From the IMG/VR virus record IMGVR_UViG_3300032456_000001: a DNA stretch of 64,000 nucleotides; one strand, 5' to 3'. Each line of letters begins with the position of its first letter. Within the stretch, counting starts at the first letter, position 1. Shown here piece after piece: positions 20,315-47,107 of this stretch. The notes beneath the pieces were generated by a model that ran no database searches, was not told where the DNA came from, and was given only the letters and a program-made list of their open reading frames with translations. The stretch comes from an uncultured virus (IMG/VR IMGVR_UViG_3300032456_000001) (lineage: Duplodnaviria > Heunggongvirae > Uroviricota > Caudoviricetes). The position numbers and the translations under genes were made by a program.

Positions 20315-21724
20315 ATGCCCGTAAAACAATACAAGAAATTACCCGTCAAGTCATCAGATTTAATACTTAAGCCACAATCGGGACAGCAAGAAGCATTTTT
20401 AACTACCTCCGCTGACTTCTCTATTTACGGCGGCGGGGCAGGTGGAGGAAAAACTTATGCACTGCTACTAGAGGCTTTACGTCATGTAACAAATCCAAAA
20501 TTTGGTGCCGTCTTTTTTAGACAAAGTTTTCCTCAAATAACAGAAGAAGGCGCACTTTGGGATACTTCAGAAGACATCTATCCGCTATTAGGTGCAATCC
20601 CTAGAAGAGGTACGCTTGACTGGCTGTTTCCTAGTGGCGCAAAAATAGGGTTTGGACACTTGGGAAACGAGCAAGCTAAGTACAAGTATCAAGGTAGTCA
20701 AATTCCCCTTCTACTGATAGACGAATTAACACATTTTAGCGAATCAGTTGTTTTCTATCTGTTTAGTCGCAACCGCTCAACTTGTGGAATTCGCCCCTAT
20801 GTTCGTTGTACAACTAACCCCGATGCCGACTCTTGGATTGCGGGGTTTGTTGATTGGTGGCTAGATGACGAAGGGTTCCCAATTCCAGAGCATAGTGGAG
20901 TCGTTCGCTACTTTGTTCGGCAGAGTGGCGAGATTGTTTGGGGTAGCTCAAGAGATGAACTTGAGAATAGATATCCTGGCTTAATGGCAAAAAGTTTCAC
21001 TTTCATTCCTGCTAAAATCGAAGACAATCAAATTTTGATGCAGCAGAACCCGGAGTATCTGGCAAATCTTCAGGCTTTGCATCCGGTAGACCAAGCTCGA
21101 CTACTTTATGGAAATTGGAAAGTTAAGGAAGAGTCGGGGAAGTTATTTAACCGCGCTTGGTTTGAAATTGTTGATGATGTTCCGCCTTTAGATTACAACG
21201 GTGAAGAAGTTAGGTTTTGGGATTTGGCGGCAACAGAGGCGGCCGTTCGTTCTAACGCCTGCTATACCGCCGGAGTCAAAATGCGATTAGTTGATGAAAT
21301 TTATTACGTGGTTGACGTTATCGCTGAACAAGTTGGGCCGGTTGGCGGTGACGAATTAATGATAGCAACCGCGCAACAGGATGGATTGTGGTGTAAAGTC
21401 CGTTGGGAGTTGGAAGGGGGAAGTAGTGGAAAACGCGACGAGGAGCATATCAAGCAATTACTAATGGGATTACACCCAGATATTGATGCAGAAGGTGTCC
21501 GACCACTCGGAGACAAGGTGAAACGTGCAAAGCCTTTGGCGACTGACACTTTTAGGGGGAAAGTCAAGCTTCTACGAGCCTCGTGGAATGACAGATTTTT
21601 AAACTGGATGCACGATTTTCCTGATGGGAAAGTCAAAGATATTACCGATGCTGCTTCTGGTGCACATTTCTGTCTAAATGAACCTATTCGATATCAAACA
21701 GGCATTGGATATTACAAGAGTTAA
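20315..21724 (+). CDS. terL: Terminase large subunit
   Basis: Walker A YGGGAGGGKT, Walker B LLIDELTHF, TTNP, nuclease WDLAAT and KDITDAASGA. Confidence 0.95.
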   Translation: MPVKQYKKLPVKSSDLILKPQSGQQEAFLTTSADFSIYGGGAGGGKTYALLLEALRHVTNPKFGAVFFRQSFPQITEEGALWDTSEDIYPLLGAIPRRGTLDWLFPSGAKIGFGHLGNEQAKYKYQGSQIPLLLIDELTHFSESVVFYLFSRNRSTCGIRPYVRCTTNPDADSWIAGFVDWWLDDEGFPIPEHSGVVRYFVRQSGEIVWGSSRDELENRYPGLMAKSFTFIPAKIEDNQILMQQNPEYLANLQALHPVDQARLLYGNWKVKEESGKLFNRAWFEIVDDVPPLDYNGEEVRFWDLAATEAAVRSNACYTAGVKMRLVDEIYYVVDVIAEQVGPVGGDELMIATAQQDGLWCKVRWELEGGSSGKRDEEHIKQLLMGLHPDIDAEGVRPLGDKVKRAKPLATDTFRGKVKLLRASWNDRFLNWMHDFPDGKVKDITDAASGAHFCLNEPIRYQTGIGYYKS

Positions 21725-34953: not shown

Positions 34954-36337
34954 TTGACATCCTCCCTACTGATGAATCAGGGGGATTCCAATCTACCCAA
35001 ACAACGAAAGCTGTCTAGGGAACTGGTGGGTTGACGCTTCACTGGAAGATGCCACATTAACTGCGGTCTTACTCCGTCCTCCACGTCCGTTTATAGTCTC
35101 AGGCAATCCGCCCGCGACTTTTATATTAATCGCTGCATTCTCATCTCGGTCGTGAACCGCCCCACAAAACAAGCAAGTCCATTCGCGAACTGAAAGCTCT
35201 TTCTTTCCACCAATTTGTCCACAACAAGAGCATCGTTGGCTAGTTGGTTCCCAGCGACTGATAACTCTAAAGTCTCTGCCGTACATTTCTGATTTGGCTT
35301 CCAGTATTGTCCGAAAACTTCGCCAGCCCAAATCAGAAATAGCACGGGATAACTTACGGTTTTTTATCATACCGGAAACGTTGAGGTCTTCTAGGATTAT
35401 CGCTTGGTTCTCACGAATAATCCTGGTACTCAATTTGTGCAAGAAATCGTTACGGATATCGGAGATTTTGGCGTGAATTTTTGCAACCTTCCGACGCGCT
35501 AATTCTCTCCGCTTGCTTCCTTTTTTCTTTCTAGCTAACTTGCGTTGTGCCTTGTGAAGCTTCCTTAGATTCTTTTTGAGAGGCTTGGGAGCCTTCACTT
35601 TCTCGCCTGTACTCATGGTTGCGAAATCAGTTATACCGAGGTCTATACCAACTGATTGCCCGTTGTCGGGTAGTTTCGTCGGAGCGACTTCAACTACAAA
35701 GCTGATAAAGTATCGGTTCGCAGCATCTTTAATTACCGTGACCGAGCTTGGCGGGGATGGCAACTCTCTTGACCAGACGACTTTGAGTTTTCCAATTTTA
35801 GCAAGATAGATTTTCCCATGTTTAATAGAGAAGCCTCCGATTCTGAATCGTGCCGACTGTCTGCTGTTACGCTTTTTGAACTTGGGACGACTAATTCTCC
35901 GACCTTTTCGCGTACTTTTTAGCGAGTCAAAGTAGTTCTTCCAAGCTACTCCTAAATCAGCAATTGATTGCTGAAGGGGAATGTTTGAAACTTCCGCTAG
36001 CCATTCCCGTTCTTCCGACTTCTTGGCTTGAGTAATGAATGTTTTTTGTAAATCTCCATTACTGGGTAGTTTCTCGGATGAATTGCACGATGCTAGCGAA
36101 TCGTTCCATACAACACGACAGCATCCAAACAATTTAGCAAGACTATAAACTTGCGGAGAAGTTGGATATATGCGGTACTTATATCGTTGTTTCATAGAAC
36201 TATTTTAACAGTAAAAAAAACCATTAATACAAATAGATATTAAGAATACGACTCATTTGAAGAAACAAAAGAAGGCGGTTGAAACCGCTGCCGACTTTTC
36301 CCGTGTTTAAAGCCAGGGGCTTGCGTCTCGCACTTCG
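34954..36337 (-). mobile_element. IS200/IS605-family non-autonomous (tnpB-only) element
   Basis: Left end follows TTGAC (36342-36338) with a subterminal hairpin; right end hairpin ends TCAA at 34954; no tnpA. Confidence 0.85.
34993..36195 (-). CDS. tnpB: RNA-guided endonuclease TnpB
   Basis: YKYRIYPT, GIDLG, ILEDLNV, CSCC/CLFC, HDRDENAAINI. Confidence 0.96.
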   Translation of the reverse strand: MKQRYKYRIYPTSPQVYSLAKLFGCCRVVWNDSLASCNSSEKLPSNGDLQKTFITQAKKSEEREWLAEVSNIPLQQSIADLGVAWKNYFDSLKSTRKGRRISRPKFKKRNSRQSARFRIGGFSIKHGKIYLAKIGKLKVVWSRELPSPPSSVTVIKDAANRYFISFVVEVAPTKLPDNGQSVGIDLGITDFATMSTGEKVKAPKPLKKNLRKLHKAQRKLARKKKGSKRRELARRKVAKIHAKISDIRNDFLHKLSTRIIRENQAIILEDLNVSGMIKNRKLSRAISDLGWRSFRTILEAKSEMYGRDFRVISRWEPTSQRCSCCGQIGGKKELSVREWTCLFCGAVHDRDENAAINIKVAGGLPETINGRGGRSKTAVNVASSSEASTHQFPRQLSLFG

Positions 36338-39012: not shown

Positions 39013-39681
39013 CTAATCATCATTCCGTTCACCATAGTAGTCTTCATCAAAAATTGTCCTATCTTGCGCTCGTGCAATGTACGCCCGTCGTGCATCGTGT
39101 GCCAGTATCGCGTCCCGTGCTTTGTCTTCCTCTGTATCAACGCTCAATTCCCCAAAGTCTAGGACTAACGAATAAGTGCCTTCCACGGTCTTCTTTTTTG
39201 ACTTTTTGGGTGCATTCTTCTTGTCCTCAGCACGTTTTTCGGCTAGCAATTTCTTTTGTGCCTGTAACTGTGCTACTAATTCCGCTCTTTCTTGAGCTTC
39301 CCTTTCTTGTTTCTGTATCAACTTCCAATATTCACCGACTGAGGTTTTGCGAGTGCGTTCTATTGCTGGAGTATTGACAAAGCAGTCATCGCACCAAGCG
39401 TCAAGTTGTTTTGGCGGGATACTTTGATACAGCTTGGAGAAAACTCCACATTTGCTACACCGTTTAATTTGTACTTTGCTGACTAGCTGCAACTGCCAGT
39501 TAATTTCTTCGATATCTCCAGGTTGTGGTGAGTCGCTACTAGATAGTTGCAACTGCTGGTTAATCTCAATTTCGGATTGCGGTGAGTCGCTATTAGGGAG
39601 TAATTGCACGATATTATTGAAGGAAGTGGCAAATATCATCATTATAGACGATACTGTTAATCTTGTCAAGATATTCGACAC
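39013..39681 (-). CDS. Hypothetical protein with internal repeat and CxxC motifs
   Basis: SDSPQ..IEIN.QLQL twice; CSKC, CDDC. Confidence 0.45.
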   Translation of the reverse strand: MSNILTRLTVSSIMMIFATSFNNIVQLLPNSDSPQSEIEINQQLQLSSSDSPQPGDIEEINWQLQLVSKVQIKRCSKCGVFSKLYQSIPPKQLDAWCDDCFVNTPAIERTRKTSVGEYWKLIQKQEREAQERAELVAQLQAQKKLLAEKRAEDKKNAPKKSKKKTVEGTYSLVLDFGELSVDTEEDKARDAILAHDARRAYIARAQDRTIFDEDYYGERNDD

Positions 39682-39822
39682 TAGGCTTTGATTTCAAGGT
39701 TCAATTCCAATAGGTTTTAGTTTGATTGTGGTAAATTAGTACCGTAACTCATTACGAAACCAATGGTTTTAATCCTCTAGCTCTTCTAGTAACACCATCC
39801 GTAGTGTCAAAGGTTAAATCAA

Positions 39823-40416
39823 ATGGAATCCATACTGGTAAGTATCGAAAAGATTAGACCGTATCATGCTAACGCTAGACTGCACCCACCAGAACAGATA
39901 GAAAAAATCATTCGCTCTATCGGACTGACCGGATTTGACCAACCAATTGTCACAGACAAATCGTTCGTTATTGTTAAAGGACACGGGCGACTGCTAGCTG
40001 CACAAAAGATGGGGTTAACGAAAGTTCCAGTCATCATTTTGGACGTCTCCAAAGATGTTGCGGACAAAGCTCGACTTATTGACAACAAATCCAGTGAATC
40101 GAGTTACGACTTAGAAGTTTTACTGGCAGAAATTAACAGGTTTGAAGACGAGATATTTGACACCGGGTACAACCCCGACGAATTTAAGGAATTACTAAAT
40201 CAGCTAGAAGCAGATACGGCTATAGCTGACTACGACTGGAACAGCTTAGATGACGCGGAGAAAGAGGAAGACAATGAAGACAATGAAGAGGCAACAATCA
40301 CGTTAAAATTTGAAATCCCCGCGAACAAAAAAAGCCTTGTTTTAGGCTTTCTTGGCGTGAAGTCTACTAAACCCAATCTACTCGGCAATGCGTTGTCAAA
40401 ACTATGCGAAAACTAA
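39823..40416 (+). CDS. ParB/Srx-like protein of the DNA-modification module
   Basis: NARLHP, GFDQPIV, GHGRLLAA, LIDNK. Confidence 0.85.
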   Translation: MESILVSIEKIRPYHANARLHPPEQIEKIIRSIGLTGFDQPIVTDKSFVIVKGHGRLLAAQKMGLTKVPVIILDVSKDVADKARLIDNKSSESSYDLEVLLAEINRFEDEIFDTGYNPDEFKELLNQLEADTAIADYDWNSLDDAEKEEDNEDNEEATITLKFEIPANKKSLVLGFLGVKSTKPNLLGNALSKLCEN

Positions 40417-41018
40417 GAGTTCAAGAGATTATCCCTTTAACGGTACAGGGCGAAGGTTTCAACGCAGGTATGCCGTGCAGCTTTGTCCGACTGTTCGGCT
40501 GTCCTGTTGGTTGTTACTTCTGTGACACGGGTTACTCGGCAAACGAGAAGAAGCCGCCAGTTTACCATGAAATGACTACTGATGAAATCAAAACGGAATT
40601 GCTAAGCGATAATGTCGTTGTTACTGGTGGCGAGCCGTTTGTTAATTTAAATTTTGCGTACTTATTACTCGAACTGTTTGACAAGCGAGTTAGTATCGAA
40701 ACTTCTGGGATTAAATTCAGCGATACCTTGACAAATGAGTGGGTAACTCTATCTCCGAAAGAGCATTTAAACAAGGACGCACTAATTGACAGGCGACTTG
40801 CTCAAAGAGCGAATGAATTAAAATTAATAATATCGAAGGAGTCTGATTTTGACTACTATTCAAGCCTAGTTCAACACTTCAAAGAGCAAAGCAAGCCTGT
40901 CTATATTCAGCCTGAATGGGGTATCATGAGTCAGAGCCTTGAGATGTTGATAGGGCTAGCCAATGAAAACGAGGTCAAGCTGTCACTACAAACGCATAAA
41001 TTAATAGGAGTGAGATAA
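40404..41018 (+). CDS. queE: 7-carboxy-7-deazaguanine synthase
   Basis: TVQGEG, FVRLFGCPVGCYFCDT, TGGEP, IETSG, LSPK, SLQTHK. Confidence 0.93.
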   Translation: MRKLRVQEIIPLTVQGEGFNAGMPCSFVRLFGCPVGCYFCDTGYSANEKKPPVYHEMTTDEIKTELLSDNVVVTGGEPFVNLNFAYLLLELFDKRVSIETSGIKFSDTLTNEWVTLSPKEHLNKDALIDRRLAQRANELKLIISKESDFDYYSSLVQHFKEQSKPVYIQPEWGIMSQSLEMLIGLANENEVKLSLQTHKLIGVR

Positions 41019-41063
41019 TCAAAAAGTCGCTTAACAAGTTAAGTAATTACAGGATATAATAGA

Positions 41064-41468
41064 ATGCCTTGGACGATTAGCAAAACTTTCACTTTTGAAG
41101 CTGCACATCAACTGCCTTACCATGATGGGAAATGTCAGCGATTACACGGACATAGTTGGCAGTGTAGCCTCTACCTCGGCAGCAGTCAGTTAATCGAGAC
41201 AGGTAGTAAGCGCCAAATGGTCATGGACTATAGCGATGTCAAGGCTGCATTCAAACCAATACTTGACGACTATTTAGACCATCACTACCTCAATGACACT
41301 TTAGGGCTTGAGTCTCCAACCAGCGAAGCCATTTCTCGCTGGATATATGACCGCGTTAAACCCATTCTTCCCGATTTACTAGGAGTCAAGATTAATGAAA
41401 CCTGCACTTCAAGCTGTTACTACTCACCCGAACCAGAGTCAAGTCCTACTAGAAGCTTTGTTGATTAA
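41064..41468 (+). CDS. queD: 6-carboxytetrahydropterin synthase
   Basis: FEAAHQL, CQRLHGHSW, LDHHYLND, PTSE. Confidence 0.95.
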   Translation: MPWTISKTFTFEAAHQLPYHDGKCQRLHGHSWQCSLYLGSSQLIETGSKRQMVMDYSDVKAAFKPILDDYLDHHYLNDTLGLESPTSEAISRWIYDRVKPILPDLLGVKINETCTSSCYYSPEPESSPTRSFVD

Positions 41469-41961
41469 CTTCTGGAAGGGAAAGGTTGAGCCAGATACCG
41501 CGCGAAGAATCTTAGGATACTGGAAAGAATTCAACTCGAACGACAGTGACGTGGGAGACTTGTTCAAGTCGTTTGAGTGTGACAATGACCAGTTGGTAGT
41601 AGTCCGAGATATCAATTATCAAAGTATGTGTGAACATCACCTACTCCCTTTCTACGGAAAGGTACACATCGGTTACATCCCAACCGGTCGCGTACTGGGG
41701 CTTAGTAAGTTCGGGCGAATCGTAACCCACTTTGCGAAAAATCCACAGCTTCAAGAGCGACTTACTCAGCAAATTGGTACAGCCATTATGGATAACCTGT
41801 CTCCGCTAGGAGTTATCGTAGTGACGGAGGGTGTTCACACCTGCATGATTGCGCGAGGCATTCTGAAGCAAGATTCCAGCACTAGAACAAGCTTTATTTC
41901 CGGCGTATTTAAGAGCGATGCGAGTGCAAGACAGGAAGCTCTGAATTTGATTCTTCACTAA
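41395..41961 (+). CDS. folE: GTP cyclohydrolase I
   Basis: SMCEHHLLPFYG, GLSKFGR, QLQERLT, HTCMIARG. Confidence 0.95.
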   Translation: MKPALQAVTTHPNQSQVLLEALLINFWKGKVEPDTARRILGYWKEFNSNDSDVGDLFKSFECDNDQLVVVRDINYQSMCEHHLLPFYGKVHIGYIPTGRVLGLSKFGRIVTHFAKNPQLQERLTQQIGTAIMDNLSPLGVIVVTEGVHTCMIARGILKQDSSTRTSFISGVFKSDASARQEALNLILH

Positions 41962-41976
41962 ACAAGGAACTAAGTC

Positions 41977-42666
41977 ATGTCGAAGGCATTAATAGTATTA
42001 TCCGGTGGTCAAGATTCAACGACGTGCGCGGTCATCGCTAAACAGCAATTTGATGAAGTTTTTGCCGTCACGTTTAACTATGGACAAAAGCATTTAACCG
42101 AGGTGCAGTCGGCTATAAAAATAGCAGATTTCTTGTCGATTCCATTAGAAATTATCGACTTAGGTTCTTCCATCTTGAAAGGGAGTTCTCCGCTAATAAG
42201 TAGCAGCGCACTTGGGCTTTACGACAGTCCAGAAGAATTGCCATCGGGAGTAGAGCCGACTTTTATTAGCGGTCGTAATACCTTGTTCTTGACCGTAGCA
42301 GCTAATCGAGCTGATTGCTTGGGAATTACAGATATTTTTACGGGTGTATGCCAAGCAGACTTTGCGGGTTATTGGGATTGTAGGCAAGTCTTTATTGACA
42401 AGATACAAACCGCGTTGAATGAGGGTTTTTACGGAGAGGAAAAGTTTAAAATCCATACGCCGCTAATGGATTTAACCAAAGCAGAATCAGTACAACTCGC
42501 TCACGAAATATTAGGCGCGGAAAAGTTTAACGAGCTTTTCTCCCTAACTCATACCTGTTATGCCGGACAAAAAGGCGGCTGCGGAAAGTGCCACGCTTGC
42601 ATCTTACGGGATAAAGGGTTCACGGAGGCAGGGATTGCCGACCCTATCTGGCAGTTCAGAAAATAA
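41977..42666 (+). CDS. queC: 7-cyano-7-deazaguanine (preQ0) synthase
   Basis: LSGGQDSTTC, FNYGQKH, RNTLFL, YWDCR, TCY..CGKCHAC. Confidence 0.95.
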   Translation: MSKALIVLSGGQDSTTCAVIAKQQFDEVFAVTFNYGQKHLTEVQSAIKIADFLSIPLEIIDLGSSILKGSSPLISSSALGLYDSPEELPSGVEPTFISGRNTLFLTVAANRADCLGITDIFTGVCQADFAGYWDCRQVFIDKIQTALNEGFYGEEKFKIHTPLMDLTKAESVQLAHEILGAEKFNELFSLTHTCYAGQKGGCGKCHACILRDKGFTEAGIADPIWQFRK

Positions 42667-42685
42667 ATAGGAGTAGGTTGATAGT

Positions 42686-43882
42686 ATGTTGATTTACTTT
42701 GCGGGTGCAGTCTAGGGACAAACGCATCCATAAGGAAATTTATGGCTCTGGATTAGTTTTAAATCATTTATCGACCTATGCAGACTTGCCCGAAGTAACG
42801 GCAAAAATATCTTCAATGTTTCTACACTTGACGGACACAACTGCAAGAATACAAGGGAACTTAAGTTGCAAAGCTTAATGGGAGAACAAAGTTATGCAAA
42901 TTCTCTCTATAGCTTCGCCTATCCCAATCAAAGAGAACAATGGGAAGAGTATTATAGTATGTTGATTCATCTTGCCGATGCCACTCCAGAGAGAGGGCAG
43001 TATCAATCGTTGGTGGATGTGAAATTTCCCTGCCACTTAATGAGCTTCGCTTACCGGAATCAAGCTTTTGAAGGGTTTACAAAGACTTGGAATATGTTAA
43101 TTCATCTTGCTAGACATTCTGCTACTAAAGCCACAGAACAAGTGAAAATTAATCATCAATCTCACCTGACAACTTTTGCAGACAAGCAAGAGATATCGAA
43201 CTTGTTCGACACCTGCGTCAACGACAGATTACTACCAAGAATACTCATAGATTCTGGCGCTTTTACTGCTTACACGACGGGCAAAGTGATTACTGTAAAA
43301 GAGTATGGAACATGGGCGCTAGAGTTCAAGAAACAGTGGGAGTGCAAAGTAAAGAGTTTACGCTTCTTCAACTTGGATGTAATCGGTTCTCAAGAAAAGT
43401 CCGATATCAACCTACACAGATTAGAGCAAATGGGTTTAGAACCTATTCCAATCTTCACTTATGATGCGGATATCAAACACTTAATTTACTACTTAGAAAA
43501 CTACGAATATATAGGCTTTGGAGGGCTGGTAGGCAGAAGCCCCGCGGTCGTTATGAAATGGTTGGATTATTGTTACAAACAAGTCAATAATCACTACAAG
43601 AAAACAGGGACTTTAAGAAAGACCCACTTGCTAGGAATTACAAAACAACAAATACTAGAGCGTTATCCGTTATATAGCTGTGACAGTAGCGGATGGGTTG
43701 CCTGCTTGCGGTTTGGTCGTGGTAAAGCAATAGGAAAGTCAAAGATTCCAAGATATAACGAGTCACCAGAAGCGCTGAAGATTACGATAGTAACGCTAAG
43801 AGCCGAGATTGAGAAGTACAAGAAGTTGCAAGACGACGTTACGAAGTTATGGGCAAAGAGAGGGGTTGTGTGGGACGAGTAG
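42686..43882 (+). CDS. TGT-fold DpdA-like deazaguanine insertase with tandem N-terminal cassettes (continuous frame 42866-43882; first two cassettes frameshifted)
   Basis: ILIDSGAF, NLDVIG, PIPIF, IGFGGLV, HLLG, SCDSSGW; last gene of the preQ0 operon. Confidence 0.75.
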
Positions 43883-44076
43883 TTTCAATCCAAAACAAAA
43901 GAGCGAGATTGTTCCCACTCTTTTGCCCTACCAGATAATTATCCTGTTTGGGTTTCCCCGCATCTTTCGATTTTTCAGGATTGCTGTCTTACGACTAGCT
44001 TCAAGCTGCTTTCGCTACACTCGCTTTCTTGAGTCAAAGCTCACAGGTAATGGGGTGAAAGCTCCCTACCTTTATA
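43882..44076 (-). ncRNA. Putative tracr/omega-like guide scaffold RNA
   Basis: Minus-strand promoter TTTACA(44110-44105)-N17-TATCTT(44087-44082); several hairpins; internal CAATCCTGA anti-repeat; ends GGATTGAAAC, the last 10 nt of the CRISPR repeat. Confidence 0.6.
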
Positions 44077-44134
44077 TTGCTAAGATAACATGATATACTG
44101 AGCTTGTAAAGCCCTTCGCAAAAGATTTTCAATT

Positions 44135-45970
44135 ATGCTCACACTAGAATTTAAATGTTTTCCATCTCTCGAACAGAAAGAAAAAATAGAAAAGTGGTTG
44201 CAAATTTCTAAGTCTGTGTGGAATTGTGGATTGTCAGCCTTAGAAGATTTTGAAACAAATTATTACTACTACAAAGCTACAAACGGTTTAGACGGTAAAG
44301 AGAGTGGCGGGTACGCTCCATGCTGTCGATTACCTTGGAAGTATTGGAGTCACCTTGTAGATGAGGAAGGTGCAATCGTTTCAAAAGACAAGGGTAAGTC
44401 AATAATCCAAGCGCCCTACAGTGTCATTTACGATGATAAGTCTCATTGGTATATCCGAGAGTTGAAGCGGGTAAAGGTTCCGCAGCCAGCAGAGAAGAAA
44501 GAATCTTGGGGCTGGCAGAACTCAGAACATGGGTCGGTTACTGGTTACAGTTGCCCTTTGTCGGTTGACTTCACTGAAACGTTGATTTCTAAGCCTGGTT
44601 TGCAACAGGCGGGCGGGTTAGGTCAAGTCATCAAAGGGGACAACCTAACAGCACACCGCGAATTTATGACAGAAATGCCGTACAAGTTTCGCTCTGGGGC
44701 TCTTGCTGGATTAGATACTAGCTGGCAAGAGTACACAAAGTCAAGAGCCGGGGTTCAGAACGGTGCAAAGAAGGGGCGACCTCGGTTTAAACGCAGACGT
44801 GACAAGGTTGCAACCCTGGTTCACAACAACCCAAAAGGTGTCATCGTTCCCAAGGTAAACTCTCAATCTCTAATAGGTATACCAGGTCTTCGTGAATTGC
44901 GACTAAAAGGACTAGCACGTCGGTGGAAAAATCCAGACGGCACAATTCCAGAAATTGCCGCCTTCAAAATATGCCAATACGCTTCAGGCTTCTATGTTCA
45001 ATTAACGGGCGAGTTGGTTCGGGGGCGACGCATCAAACAAACAACTAAGTCGATAGGAATCGACCCTGGACTAGACAGCTTTATCAGTTTAAGCAACGGC
45101 AAGCAGTACGGAAATCCGCGTTACTACCGGAACGCTCAAATTAAATTAGCGGAGCTTCAGAAAGAACTAGCTAACAAAATGACTCACCGACTGATTCTCT
45201 GGTTAAATCATCCTGAACGGCGACACAAAGACATCAAAGCTCTTATTAATTGCTCACCTGACAAAGCCAAAAAACTTTGTGAAATCAAAAGTGAATCTGA
45301 AGGTGTTGCCCTAATCGGAGGGATGTACTGGCAAAAGTTAAAGTGGAACTGTCAAGCACCTTCAAGTGAACAGAAAAAGATTCAGAATCGGATTGGCAAA
45401 CTACACGAGAAGATTAAACGTCAACGCAAGGGATTCAACCAAAAGCTTAGCTCTGAGATTGTAACCAACTATCAATTTATTTCCTGTGAAAACGGGCTGC
45501 AATCACAAAATCTTCGAGCACAAGCTAAGCCACAAGAAGATACAGAGAAAGGTGGCTACAAGAAAAACCGGAAAGCTCAAAAAACTGGGTTAGCAAAGTC
45601 GTTATCTGACGCGGGACACGGCGATTTCATTGCACAACTAGAACAGAAATCTGCACGTGACGGACGTACTTTTTTGAGAAATCCGGCTGCCTACACTTCG
45701 CAAACTTGCCCAGTCTGCCTAAACAAGATGGCGTCAATGAGTGACCCTAAAATTAAATTGTATGAATGTACCTGCGGCTGGAAGTGTCACCGTGATATCA
45801 ATGCGGCGGTCAACGATGAACTAGCACTGTTCACAGGATTGGTAGCAACAAAGAAAGCGAAAAAATGGGGCGAATTAAGCCTTGAACTTCTACAGAAGGA
45901 AGTTTCAATTGGTTTGTCTAAGTGGGCGTTACAGGCAAAAACAAAAAGGATAGATTTATTATCCCGGTGA
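44135..45970 (+). CDS. Enlarged TnpB-like / compact type V (Cas12-like) RuvC effector, 611 aa
   Basis: TnpB-like N-terminus (LEFKCFPSLEQ...VWN), GRPRFK, RuvC-I GIDPG, RuvC-II ISCEN, Zn finger CPVC/CTCG, RuvC-III HRDINAAVN; CRISPR repeats begin 9 bp after the stop. Confidence 0.85.
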   Translation: MLTLEFKCFPSLEQKEKIEKWLQISKSVWNCGLSALEDFETNYYYYKATNGLDGKESGGYAPCCRLPWKYWSHLVDEEGAIVSKDKGKSIIQAPYSVIYDDKSHWYIRELKRVKVPQPAEKKESWGWQNSEHGSVTGYSCPLSVDFTETLISKPGLQQAGGLGQVIKGDNLTAHREFMTEMPYKFRSGALAGLDTSWQEYTKSRAGVQNGAKKGRPRFKRRRDKVATLVHNNPKGVIVPKVNSQSLIGIPGLRELRLKGLARRWKNPDGTIPEIAAFKICQYASGFYVQLTGELVRGRRIKQTTKSIGIDPGLDSFISLSNGKQYGNPRYYRNAQIKLAELQKELANKMTHRLILWLNHPERRHKDIKALINCSPDKAKKLCEIKSESEGVALIGGMYWQKLKWNCQAPSSEQKKIQNRIGKLHEKIKRQRKGFNQKLSSEIVTNYQFISCENGLQSQNLRAQAKPQEDTEKGGYKKNRKAQKTGLAKSLSDAGHGDFIAQLEQKSARDGRTFLRNPAAYTSQTCPVCLNKMASMSDPKIKLYECTCGWKCHRDINAAVNDELALFTGLVATKKAKKWGELSLELLQKEVSIGLSKWALQAKTKRIDLLSR

Positions 45971-46012
45971 AATCTTTCGTTTTAATTCCTAGTAGGGATT
46001 GGAGATTATTGC

Positions 46013-46837
46013 GTTTCAATCCCTAGTGGGGGTTTAGGTTGATTGCGACCTTTCTGTTGGTGTTAACAAAAAGGTAGTTAGAATGTTTCAATCCCTGATA
46101 GGGGTTTAGGTTGATTGCGACGTTAATGTCGAAGAAGGCCGCGACCGAGTTCGTTTCGTTTCAATCCCTGATAAGGGGTTTAGGTTGATTGCGACGATTG
46201 AGGGATGCTGAGGTATTGTTCGCGTTTTGTTTCAATCCCTGATAGGGGTTTAGGTTGATTGCGACCCGGCTTAGGGCCTGACTGGTCGCGTAAGTAACCG
46301 TTTCAATCCCTGATAGGGGTTTAGGTTGATTGCGACCGCAGAAAGCTAAGTCCACAGCAGCTTTACTCTTGCCGTTTCAATCCCTGATAGGGGTTTGGGT
46401 TGATTGCGACCCGACAGGTTTCCGCTCATCACCAAAAACTACTGTTTCAATCCCTGATAGGGGTTTAGGTTGATTGCGACGCTGGCAAGGTGAGGTAAGT
46501 GTTCTGAAACAGATGTTTCAATCCCTGATAGGGGTTTAGGTTGATTGCGACGCAAGGAAGTTAGCGAGAATTCGGCAGAGTTCGCAGTTTCAATCCCTGA
46601 TAGGGGTTTAGGTTGATTGTGACTTACCGGGCATTGGAGCATCGGAGAGCACGGAGAAGTTTCAATCCCTGATAGGGGTTTAGGTTGATTGCGACGGCAG
46701 AAAACTGGAATGGGTGAGTACAACTGGGAGGTTTCAATCCCTGATAGGGGTTTAGGTTGATTGCGACGCAATCCGGGATATGCAGCCAAGAAAAATATCA
46801 GTTTCAATCCCTAGTAGGAATTTAGCTTGATTGCGAC
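46013..46837 (-). CRISPR. CRISPR array: 12 repeats (37 bp, GTCGCAATCAACCTAAACCCCTATCAGGGATTGAAAC on minus strand), 11 spacers of 33-37 bp, plus a degenerate repeat at 45979-46013
   Basis: Repeat starts on + at 46013, 46085, 46158, 46229, 46300, 46374, 46444, 46515, 46587, 46659, 46731, 46801; all spacers differ. Confidence 0.98.
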
Positions 46838-46993
46838 CGCCGACGTGTGAAATCGTTGGTGTATCTAGTTTTCAAGGTTGCGTTGCGTCAAACCGACTCC
46901 CGCAATTGCAAAAGTGTTATGGAAAGATTGAATATTATTTAGTTTTCGTGGTTCGGTTAAGTCCATTGTAATCGAAGATGCGAATCCTGTCAA
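46838..46993 (-). promoter_or_regulatory. CRISPR leader and promoter
   Basis: Minus strand TTGACA(46993-46988)-N17-TACAAT(46970-46965); leader contains ACCTTGAAAAC, as recalled from cyanobacterial leaders. Confidence 0.75.
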
Positions 46994-47007: not shown

Positions 47008-47107
47008 AAAAAAACCCGCTTTCGCAGGCTTGAGATGAAAACCACTTCAAATGAAAACACACTAAAACCGCTACTCACTGCACGCAATTGCCGTAAACGT
47101 ATCGATT
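47008..47107 (-). ncRNA. Putative ~100-nt trans-acting sRNA
   Basis: TTGACG(47142-47137)-N17-TATTAT(47119-47114) promoter, GAAA-loop terminator with U run, no ORF, central segment complementary to early-gene leaders. Confidence 0.6.

Follow-up and report, generated by a model that had tools for sequence, protein, structure and literature searches.

Does a TnpB-like nuclease gene that abuts a CRISPR array in a phage genome belong to a CRISPR system of its own, and whose proteins would use the guides that such an array encodes? The question is raised by a locus in the uncultured Caudoviricetes virus IMGVR_UViG_3300032456_000001, of which a stretch of 64,000 nucleotides (nt), hereafter the window, was analysed. 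In a preliminary description of this DNA, the locus was taken for an independent lineage leading from TnpB to a type V effector, which had taken over a host class 1 array and was probably used against competing mobile elements. The present analysis places the predicted effector in the catalogued type V-U2 (C2c8) family instead, and the reading that we consider probable is that of a phage-borne V-U2 locus with an array of host type I-D character, whose spacers come from host type I-D adaptation and are directed against rival mobile elements. Both the family and its occurrence in cyanophages are already in print, and the discovery is a modest one; what is added here comprises an I-D-type repeat and leader nearly identical to those of host arrays, an inverted array, GTT-flanked protospacers, loss of the effector in two sister phages, purifying selection on the effector gene, and a conserved region upstream of it.

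The effector and its family

The assignment of the effector to a catalogued family, and not to a new lineage, follows from its score of 394.7 bits (E 6.7e-118) against NF038192, the NCBIfam model for type V-U2 C2c8 with a curated cut-off of 350, and from the top PADLOC model being Cas12u2 (E 1.1e-116, profile positions 1–434 of 445). These scores, and the putative V-U2 system published in 2018 from Aphanizomenon phage vB_AphaS-CL131 (PMC6293099), speak against the independent lineage proposed at first. The CL131 system likewise consists of a single TnpB-like effector and an array on a cyanophage with no adaptation genes, and such systems also occur in cyanobacteria; its protein aligns over 82% of the window effector at 29.5% identity. 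Among 5.8 billion clustered proteins, 33 matches were found, 26 of them full-length relatives (219–1393 bits) and seven short TnpB-like proteins. Across 26 aligned family members, D310 and E452 do not vary, D554 is present in at least 90% of the sequences, and the zinc-ribbon cysteines C525/C528/C545/C547 (CxxC...CxC) are conserved, while Pfam recognises a Cas12f1-like TNB zinc ribbon and an OrfB_IS605 domain; the three RuvC acidic motifs and the zinc finger first described for this 611-residue protein are thereby confirmed. Between the window and the sister phage G005, the effector gene differs at 27 synonymous and 10 non-synonymous positions, with a ratio of non-synonymous to synonymous rates (dN/dS) of 0.10, and where it is retained the gene is under purifying selection.

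An ordinary mobile TnpB of the IS200/IS605 type that landed by chance beside a phage array is hardly credible as an alternative. The effector shares with such proteins the RuvC and zinc-ribbon core and the OrfB_IS605 and TNB domains, solved TnpB structures are among its top fold matches, and the same phage does carry an ordinary TnpB of 400 amino acids (34993–36195, minus strand; helix-turn-helix, OrfB_IS605 and TNB domains). Against the IS200_TnpB model, however, the effector reaches 124 bits where the cut-off is 425, and it passes the C2c8 model. It is 211 residues longer than the ordinary TnpB, close to the excess of about 210 stated initially; BLASTP aligns the two at residues 5–40, 172–348 and 417–564, leaving as extra segments two insertions where they had been described, in the N-terminal lobe (41–171) and after RuvC-I (349–416), which together amount to about 170 residues, and a C-terminal tail. 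Unlike IS200/IS605 TnpB with its omega RNA, the effector is array-linked and lacks element ends, and a Y1 transposase (TnpA), already reported as missing from the locus, was found neither among 44 open reading frames (ORFs) scanned with Pfam nor by PADLOC. The family is also rare, with C2c8 above the cut-off in 6 of 401 sampled cyanobacterial genomes, one copy each. An ordinary TnpB is likewise carried by G005.

Among proteins of solved structure, the best relative by both profile and fold is Cas12p, the 'Cas12 hacker' of type V-P (PDB 9jfs, 9jg3). The AlphaFold model of the effector (predicted local distance difference test 82, predicted template modelling score 0.64) matches Cas12p first (Foldseek E 6e-19, template modelling score 0.51–0.59), followed by TnpB, LaTranC, Cas12f and Cas12m, and the family profile also places Cas12p at the top of the solved chains (E 2.6e-38), mainly across the RuvC half. 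Twelve Cas12p proteins have been described; they are phage-encoded, 500–700 residues long and associated with 37-nt repeats that end in AAAC and with GTN as protospacer adjacent motif (PAM), and Cas12p cleaves DNA, depends on TrxA and uses a 185-nt trans-activating CRISPR RNA (tracrRNA) whose 5' GUUU pairs with the repeat tail (10.1101/2025.01.20.633832). The window locus has the 37-nt repeat ending AAAC in common with Cas12p and, in keeping with a GTN PAM, GTT flanks at all three protospacers; it differs from Cas12p in that the effector belongs to a separate hidden Markov model family and shows an identity of just 16–18% in structural alignment.

Small V-U effectors, and that of the CL131 locus, have been suggested to bind DNA under RNA guidance and to act as regulators without cutting. 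For C2c8 we hold this to be very unlikely: a gene-regulatory role was raised by the CL131 authors (PMC6293099), and short repeat-tail motifs stand just before the start codon in several loci, but the family as a whole keeps the three acidic residues of RuvC and the closest characterised relative, Cas12p, is a DNA-cleaving enzyme (10.1101/2025.01.20.633832). As to the motifs themselves, the fragment TTCAAT lies just upstream of the effector ATG at window 44126–44132 and at about 2258–2269 of the homologue locus L075, and GATTGAAC lies 12–20 nt before the ATG in three loci with co-directional arrays (L039, L076 and L040). The orientation of this piece is always that of the array of the same locus, and it could be a regulatory site.

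Array linkage in the family

Homologues are consistently linked to arrays, a point on which the preliminary description had proposed a check: 13 of 14 C2c8 loci, down to about 31% identity, carry one, and in the single exception the contig ends 126 nt past the match. The set comprises the window, two sister phages, a more distant phage (G004) and seven cyanobacterial genomes, all 11 with an array, together with three metagenome loci, two of which have one. In eight loci the array lies 260–550 nt downstream and is co-directional with the gene, its repeats reading ...ATTGAAAC/G in the gene sense, and in two it lies upstream and is divergent. A downstream array in convergent orientation is found only in the clade of the window; in the window itself it begins directly after the effector gene, as had been stated, with 8–43 nt between the stop codon and the array. 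The homologues P0001, P0011, P0012, P0026, L015 and L076 lie on contigs of 87–94 kb, a size typical of phage genomes, and two of these contigs are IMG/VR virus records, so that much of the C2c8 family may be phage-borne.

Of the small type V-U groups first defined, V-U2 is the last that lacks experimental characterisation in the literature searched. A 2024 review lists it without a named Cas12 letter (PMC11641405), and the accessible part of a 2026 Anabaena-phage preprint contains nothing on it (10.64898/2026.02.14.705889). The present locus offers a compact case that could be tested, with an intact effector under purifying selection, an array whose promoter and orientation are defined, and GTN as the predicted PAM; because the group is uncharacterised and the clade also supplies effector-minus sister phages as natural controls, it merits a bench test. 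The locus also bears on the idea, raised so far from sequence comparisons alone, that class 2 effectors can be supplied by type I-D adaptation and by Cas6 processing.

Host character and targets of the array

The repeat was initially described as host class 1 in type, and this is corroborated. With up to three mismatches, it occurs in 17 of 401 cyanobacterial genomes, at up to 236 copies per genome, among which is none of the six that carry C2c8 above the cut-off. One such host array (in G314) directly follows, on the same strand, the genes for Cas10d/Csc3, Csc2, Csc1, Cas6, Cas4 and Cas1d, a complete type I-D operon, and the other four of the five host arrays examined are orphans. The leader motif, finally, lies in the 50 nt beside the leader-proximal repeat and is shared with the leaders of two host orphan arrays (L069, L071) and of the sister phage G001. 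For 79 of the 121 genomes from the host family Nostocaceae, alignments to arrays of this type were obtained; they are repeat-driven, at about 70% identity, with zero spacer identity among the matches listed. In the metagenome with the exact variant of the window, repeat words reach a depth of 18,750 as against about 27 for the phage. The window repeat, near-identical to host I-D and orphan arrays, differs in this from the repeats of CL131, which bear little similarity to host repeats according to their authors (PMC6293099). On the minus strand, the window repeats score 26–37 bits with the Rfam model CRISPR-DR5, below its gathering score of 40. A similar leader motif occurs in the V-U2 locus L076. 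Repeats and leaders of I-D type seem to be common to V-U2 arrays in general, in agreement with a preprint that reports near-identical spacers in Cas12k, type III, I-D and V-U2 arrays (10.1101/2021.02.06.429022). The leader-proximal repeat and 54 nt of leader (46801–46891) are also 75% identical, along 91 nt, to a stretch of Nostoc phage YongM (MT426122, 62709–62799) that is annotated as a hypothetical protein.

The array has a leader and an opposite-strand promoter-like site matching 11 of 12 consensus positions, as stated in the preliminary description, although promoter-like sites across the scanned region are not above chance (seven found, 5.1 ± 2.2 expected). The minus-strand orientation of the array is further backed by the PAM side of its targets. 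Contigs of four metagenome runs were compared with the locus, and three spacers were matched in a non-array context: 46337–46373 (runs X2, X3 and X4), 46624–46658 (X3) and 46768–46800 (X1, on a 6,744-nt contig). All three protospacers have AAC on the right flank of the plus strand, which is 5'-GTT in the sense of the CRISPR RNA (crRNA), and left flanks without consensus (CCA, CAA, ACT); the crRNA strand is therefore the minus strand and the PAM of the GTN type. The flank is to be read as an acquisition bias and not as the effector's own PAM. GTN is the PAM of type I-D and of Cas12k (10.1101/2021.02.06.429022) as well as that of Cas12p (10.1101/2025.01.20.633832). A diverged copy (32/37) of the 46337–46373 target, with a GTA flank, lies in a 927-residue AAA_25 replication-type ORF of a Nostocaceae genome, whose product showed no relation to the phage's own primase-helicase. 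The metagenome matches and this ORF identify the targets as other replicons of the same habitat, and the proposed use against competing mobile elements gains support insofar as spacers match other DNA in the same samples.

Arrays of Cas12k (type V-K) resemble that of the window in their 37-bp repeats with I-D-like ends, a common leader feature and the GTN PAM. In cyanobacteria, class 2 arrays have been proposed to receive their spacers through type I-D adaptation, and the repeats of Cas12k are said to be without the Cas6 stem-loop and hence to yield private guides (10.1101/2021.02.06.429022). The window locus differs from Cas12k in lacking transposon genes and in having a repeat within three mismatches of host arrays, on which ground its guides are probably not private.

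The upstream non-coding region

A scaffold RNA divergent from the effector gene had been proposed upstream of it. What stands of this proposal is a conserved and structured region (Table 1), a candidate scaffold RNA for which folding favours the minus strand and a 10-nt anti-tail the plus strand. Between the window and G005, the region differs at 3 of 196 nt, as compared with 6.8% of synonymous sites in the effector gene, and accounts for three of the seven differences in the 252 nt from 43883 to the start codon. Folding of the minus strand gives a z-score of -2.88 (1 of 200 shuffles as good) and that of the plus strand -1.66 (13 of 200); for the corresponding region of L075, whose protein is 43% identical, the values are -5.77 (0 of 200) and -2.26 (5 of 200). 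L075 repeats the layout, with a repeat-tail copy (TTTCAATCC), a compensated hairpin and a later hairpin with a GAAA loop. The first hairpin, a minus-strand stem of 17–18 bp followed by a U-run, differs by three compensatory pairs (CAAAAGAG/CTCTTTTG in the window, CAAAACCC/GGGTTTTG in L075) and ends in the same U-rich tail. The minus-favoured folding, this terminator-like hairpin and a weak minus-strand promoter-like site together support the divergent RNA. That site (44110..44082, TTTACA-17-TATCTT, TG) overlaps a plus-strand site for the effector gene (44071..44099, TTTATA-17-TATACT, TG), and the pair is weak because site counts in the region are not above those in shuffled sequence.

Within 1.5 kb and apart from the array, the anti-tail has a single exact match, the 10-nt copy of the repeat tail at the edge of this region, a position read from the junctions of the window, G001 and G005; L075 carries TTTCAATCCC correspondingly. 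This copy is the sole clear tie between the upstream region and the array. Its plus-strand reading is the complement of the repeat tail and is placed like the 5' GUUU of the Cas12p tracrRNA; its minus-strand reading equals the tail and, coming right behind the hairpin, resembles a truncated repeat unit. Sliding duplex scans for an anti-repeat found a stretch within the effector gene and the degenerate terminal repeat, and no position consistent across loci. The stretch within the gene (44863..44904, plus strand) joins both repeat ends, TCAATCTCTAATAGG ... TGAATTGCGAC, around a 15-nt filler in the orientation of the array repeats and encodes residues of about 243–257 (NSQSLIGIPGLRELRLK); it is the best duplex partner in the locus of the repeat in its crRNA form (-32.0 kcal/mol, z -5.3). 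A tracrRNA in the 3' end of the effector ORF was also considered and is unsupported, the C-terminal tail being predicted by AlphaFold to be helical with high confidence. In co-directional V-U2 loci, antisense degenerate repeats lie between the gene and the array or in the 3' end of the gene (L042, 5372–5410 and 5597–5630; L076, 5886–5904) and are candidate anti-repeats of an antisense tracrRNA.

Table 1. Coordinates of the V-U2 locus and adjoining features in the window.
Feature	Position	Strand	Details
Type V-U2 effector gene (C2c8 / Cas12u2)	44135..45970	+	611 aa; RuvC triad and zinc ribbon intact
Conserved structured non-coding region, candidate scaffold/tracr-like RNA	43883..44078	- favoured by folding; + by 10-nt anti-tail	
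Repeat-tail copy, 10 nt	43882..43891		GTTTCAATCC plus / GGATTGAAAC minus; edge of DNA common to sister phages
Long terminator-like hairpin	43893..43928	-	core CAAAAGAG (43896–43903) / CTCTTTTG (43918–43925), then UUUUGUUUU
Overlapping back-to-back promoter-like sites	44071..44110	both	9/12 matches each
Degenerate terminal repeat copy, 3 nt short	45979..46013	-	abuts neighbouring full repeat, no spacer; 8 nt after effector stop codon
CRISPR array	46013..46837	-	12 repeats of 37 nt, 11 spacers of 33–37 nt; crRNA sense GTCGCAATCAACCTAAACCCCTATCAGGGATTGAAAC; repeat 3' end ATTGAAAC
Leader	46838..46964	-	motif ACGCAA..GCAACCTTGAAAACTAGATA.. common to host arrays
Array promoter	46965..46993	-	TTGACA-17-TACAAT, 11/12 matches; conserved in G001 and G500
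Terminator-like hairpin	47012..47031	-	closes upstream minus-strand genes just before array promoter

Sister phages and the use of the array

The locus consists of a TnpB-derived nuclease gene, an upstream structured region as a candidate scaffold RNA and a convergently transcribed array. In the reading of a V-U2 system with a host I-D-type array, the array would most likely be filled in trans by host Cas1-Cas2-Cas4 during infection, which would select 5'-GTN-flanked protospacers from rival mobile elements; the precursor of the crRNAs would start at the minus-strand promoter, and C2c8, by analogy with Cas12p, may use the repeat tail (...GAAAC), the spacer and a scaffold RNA, and may cleave competitor DNA that carries a GTN flank. 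As the repeat keeps the hairpin of the host Cas6 type, host class 1 complexes can probably be armed with these crRNAs as well. Such class 1 use would explain why the array is kept in sister phages that have lost the effector.

Three close relatives of the window phage bear on this point. G001 is complete (83.9 kb), with 96.7% identity across the 50,339 bases that it shares with the window; G005, of 91.7 kb, has an intact effector gene that is 98% identical; and G500, of 58.6 kb and about 70% complete, is syntenic on both sides of the locus. Their spacer sets are almost wholly different: G500 has one spacer and the oldest, diverged spacer in common with the window, and one in common with G001. 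The effector is thus useful but dispensable, and the array is maintained and renewed without it. In the array of G005 (L009, 6879–7987), at least four repeat variants form a mosaic, and at four sites a truncated repeat of 33–34 nt adjoins a full one without an intervening spacer, like the end of the window array; this suggests stacked or recombined mini-arrays.

Several observations weigh against a system centred on the phage effector. In G001, the effector gene stops at codon 170 and is joined directly to a repeat, and G500 lacks the equivalent of window 43883–45978, that is the effector gene and the region upstream of it, yet has 18 perfect repeats, so that the array persists without a phage effector. 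The window array is inverted relative to the eight loci with a downstream co-directional array. The duplex energy between the upstream RNA and the crRNA repeat lies within the shuffled range for both strands (89 of 300 and 47 of 300 shuffles); with pairing that does not exceed that of shuffled repeats, no tracrRNA has been demonstrated. No spacer matched a deposited phage, the sole match being the YongM leader and repeat stretch, three whole spacers scanned for in viral contigs were found in arrays only, and a comparison of 29 spacers with four phage genomes gave no matches besides self. Studies of V-U2 expression, activity or function were not found in the literature searched.

Much of this would fit an array that serves only the host's class 1 proteins, with Cas6 and then type I-D or type III complexes using its transcripts. 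Such a cas-less hijacking array has been proposed for Nostoc cyanophage N-1 (Chenard et al. 2016, as described in PMC6293099), and C2c8 would then be a separate or decaying passenger, perhaps working with a different RNA, such as the upstream one carrying a fixed guide. The main argument for this alternative is the renewal of arrays without the effector: those of G001 and G500 keep perfect repeats, the leader and the promoter with differing spacers, and these phages are effectively cas-less. Like N-1, the window phage is a phage of filamentous cyanobacteria and carries a host-type, DR5-like array; unlike N-1, it also has an intact type V effector. The near-identity of repeat and leader to host arrays, one of them I-D-linked, points the same way, as do the inverted array, the lack of a significant anti-repeat in the duplex test and the minus-strand upstream RNA, which is followed by the 10-nt repeat-tail copy in the manner of a truncated repeat unit. 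The GTT motif suits I-D interference as well as I-D adaptation. On the other side stand the array linkage of homologues across the family, the low dN/dS of the effector gene, its position 8 nt from the array in two lineages, and the fact that Cas12p works with 37-nt repeats ending in AAAC and a GTN PAM (10.1101/2025.01.20.633832). On this evidence we regard an array for the host alone as rather unlikely.

Between these accounts lies one that can be put forward tentatively, in which a single array arms two classes of effector: host Cas1-Cas2-Cas4 would fill it from GTT-flanked sites, host Cas6 could process its transcript, and the crRNAs would serve both C2c8 and host class 1 complexes against rival plasmids and phages. 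If so, phage lineages such as G001 and G500 could drop the effector and still profit wherever the host supplies one.

Phage context and neighbouring genes

The TnpB-derived type V effector beside an array does reside on a phage, as the preliminary description had it. By Pfam, the window is a fragment of a phage genome with a large terminase gene (20315–21724), portal-like, Mu F-like and P22-type coat genes, a sigma factor, a C5 methyltransferase and a primase-helicase-like gene, and the host group of the virus is the filamentous cyanobacteria. PADLOC matched Cas1, Cas2, Cas4 or Cas6 to none of the 101 window ORFs of at least 70 residues, in keeping with what had been reported, and found no type I-D cas genes beside the array in the same set. 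A megablast comparison of the locus DNA with deposited phages gave zero matches.

To the left of the locus lies a cassette (39677–43881) that encodes ParB-like, QueE-like radical SAM, QueD/PTPS, GTP cyclohydrolase I, QueC and queuine tRNA-ribosyltransferase-like (DpdA-type) proteins and presumably serves 7-deazaguanine DNA modification. It is missing from the same junction in G001, G005 and G500, and its insertion point lies exactly before the GTTTCAATCC motif. At about 39640–39676, a minus-strand TTGACA-17-TATAAT site faces the leftward genes from 39681 to 37639; in the cassette-free sisters, this site stands just past a terminator-like hairpin.

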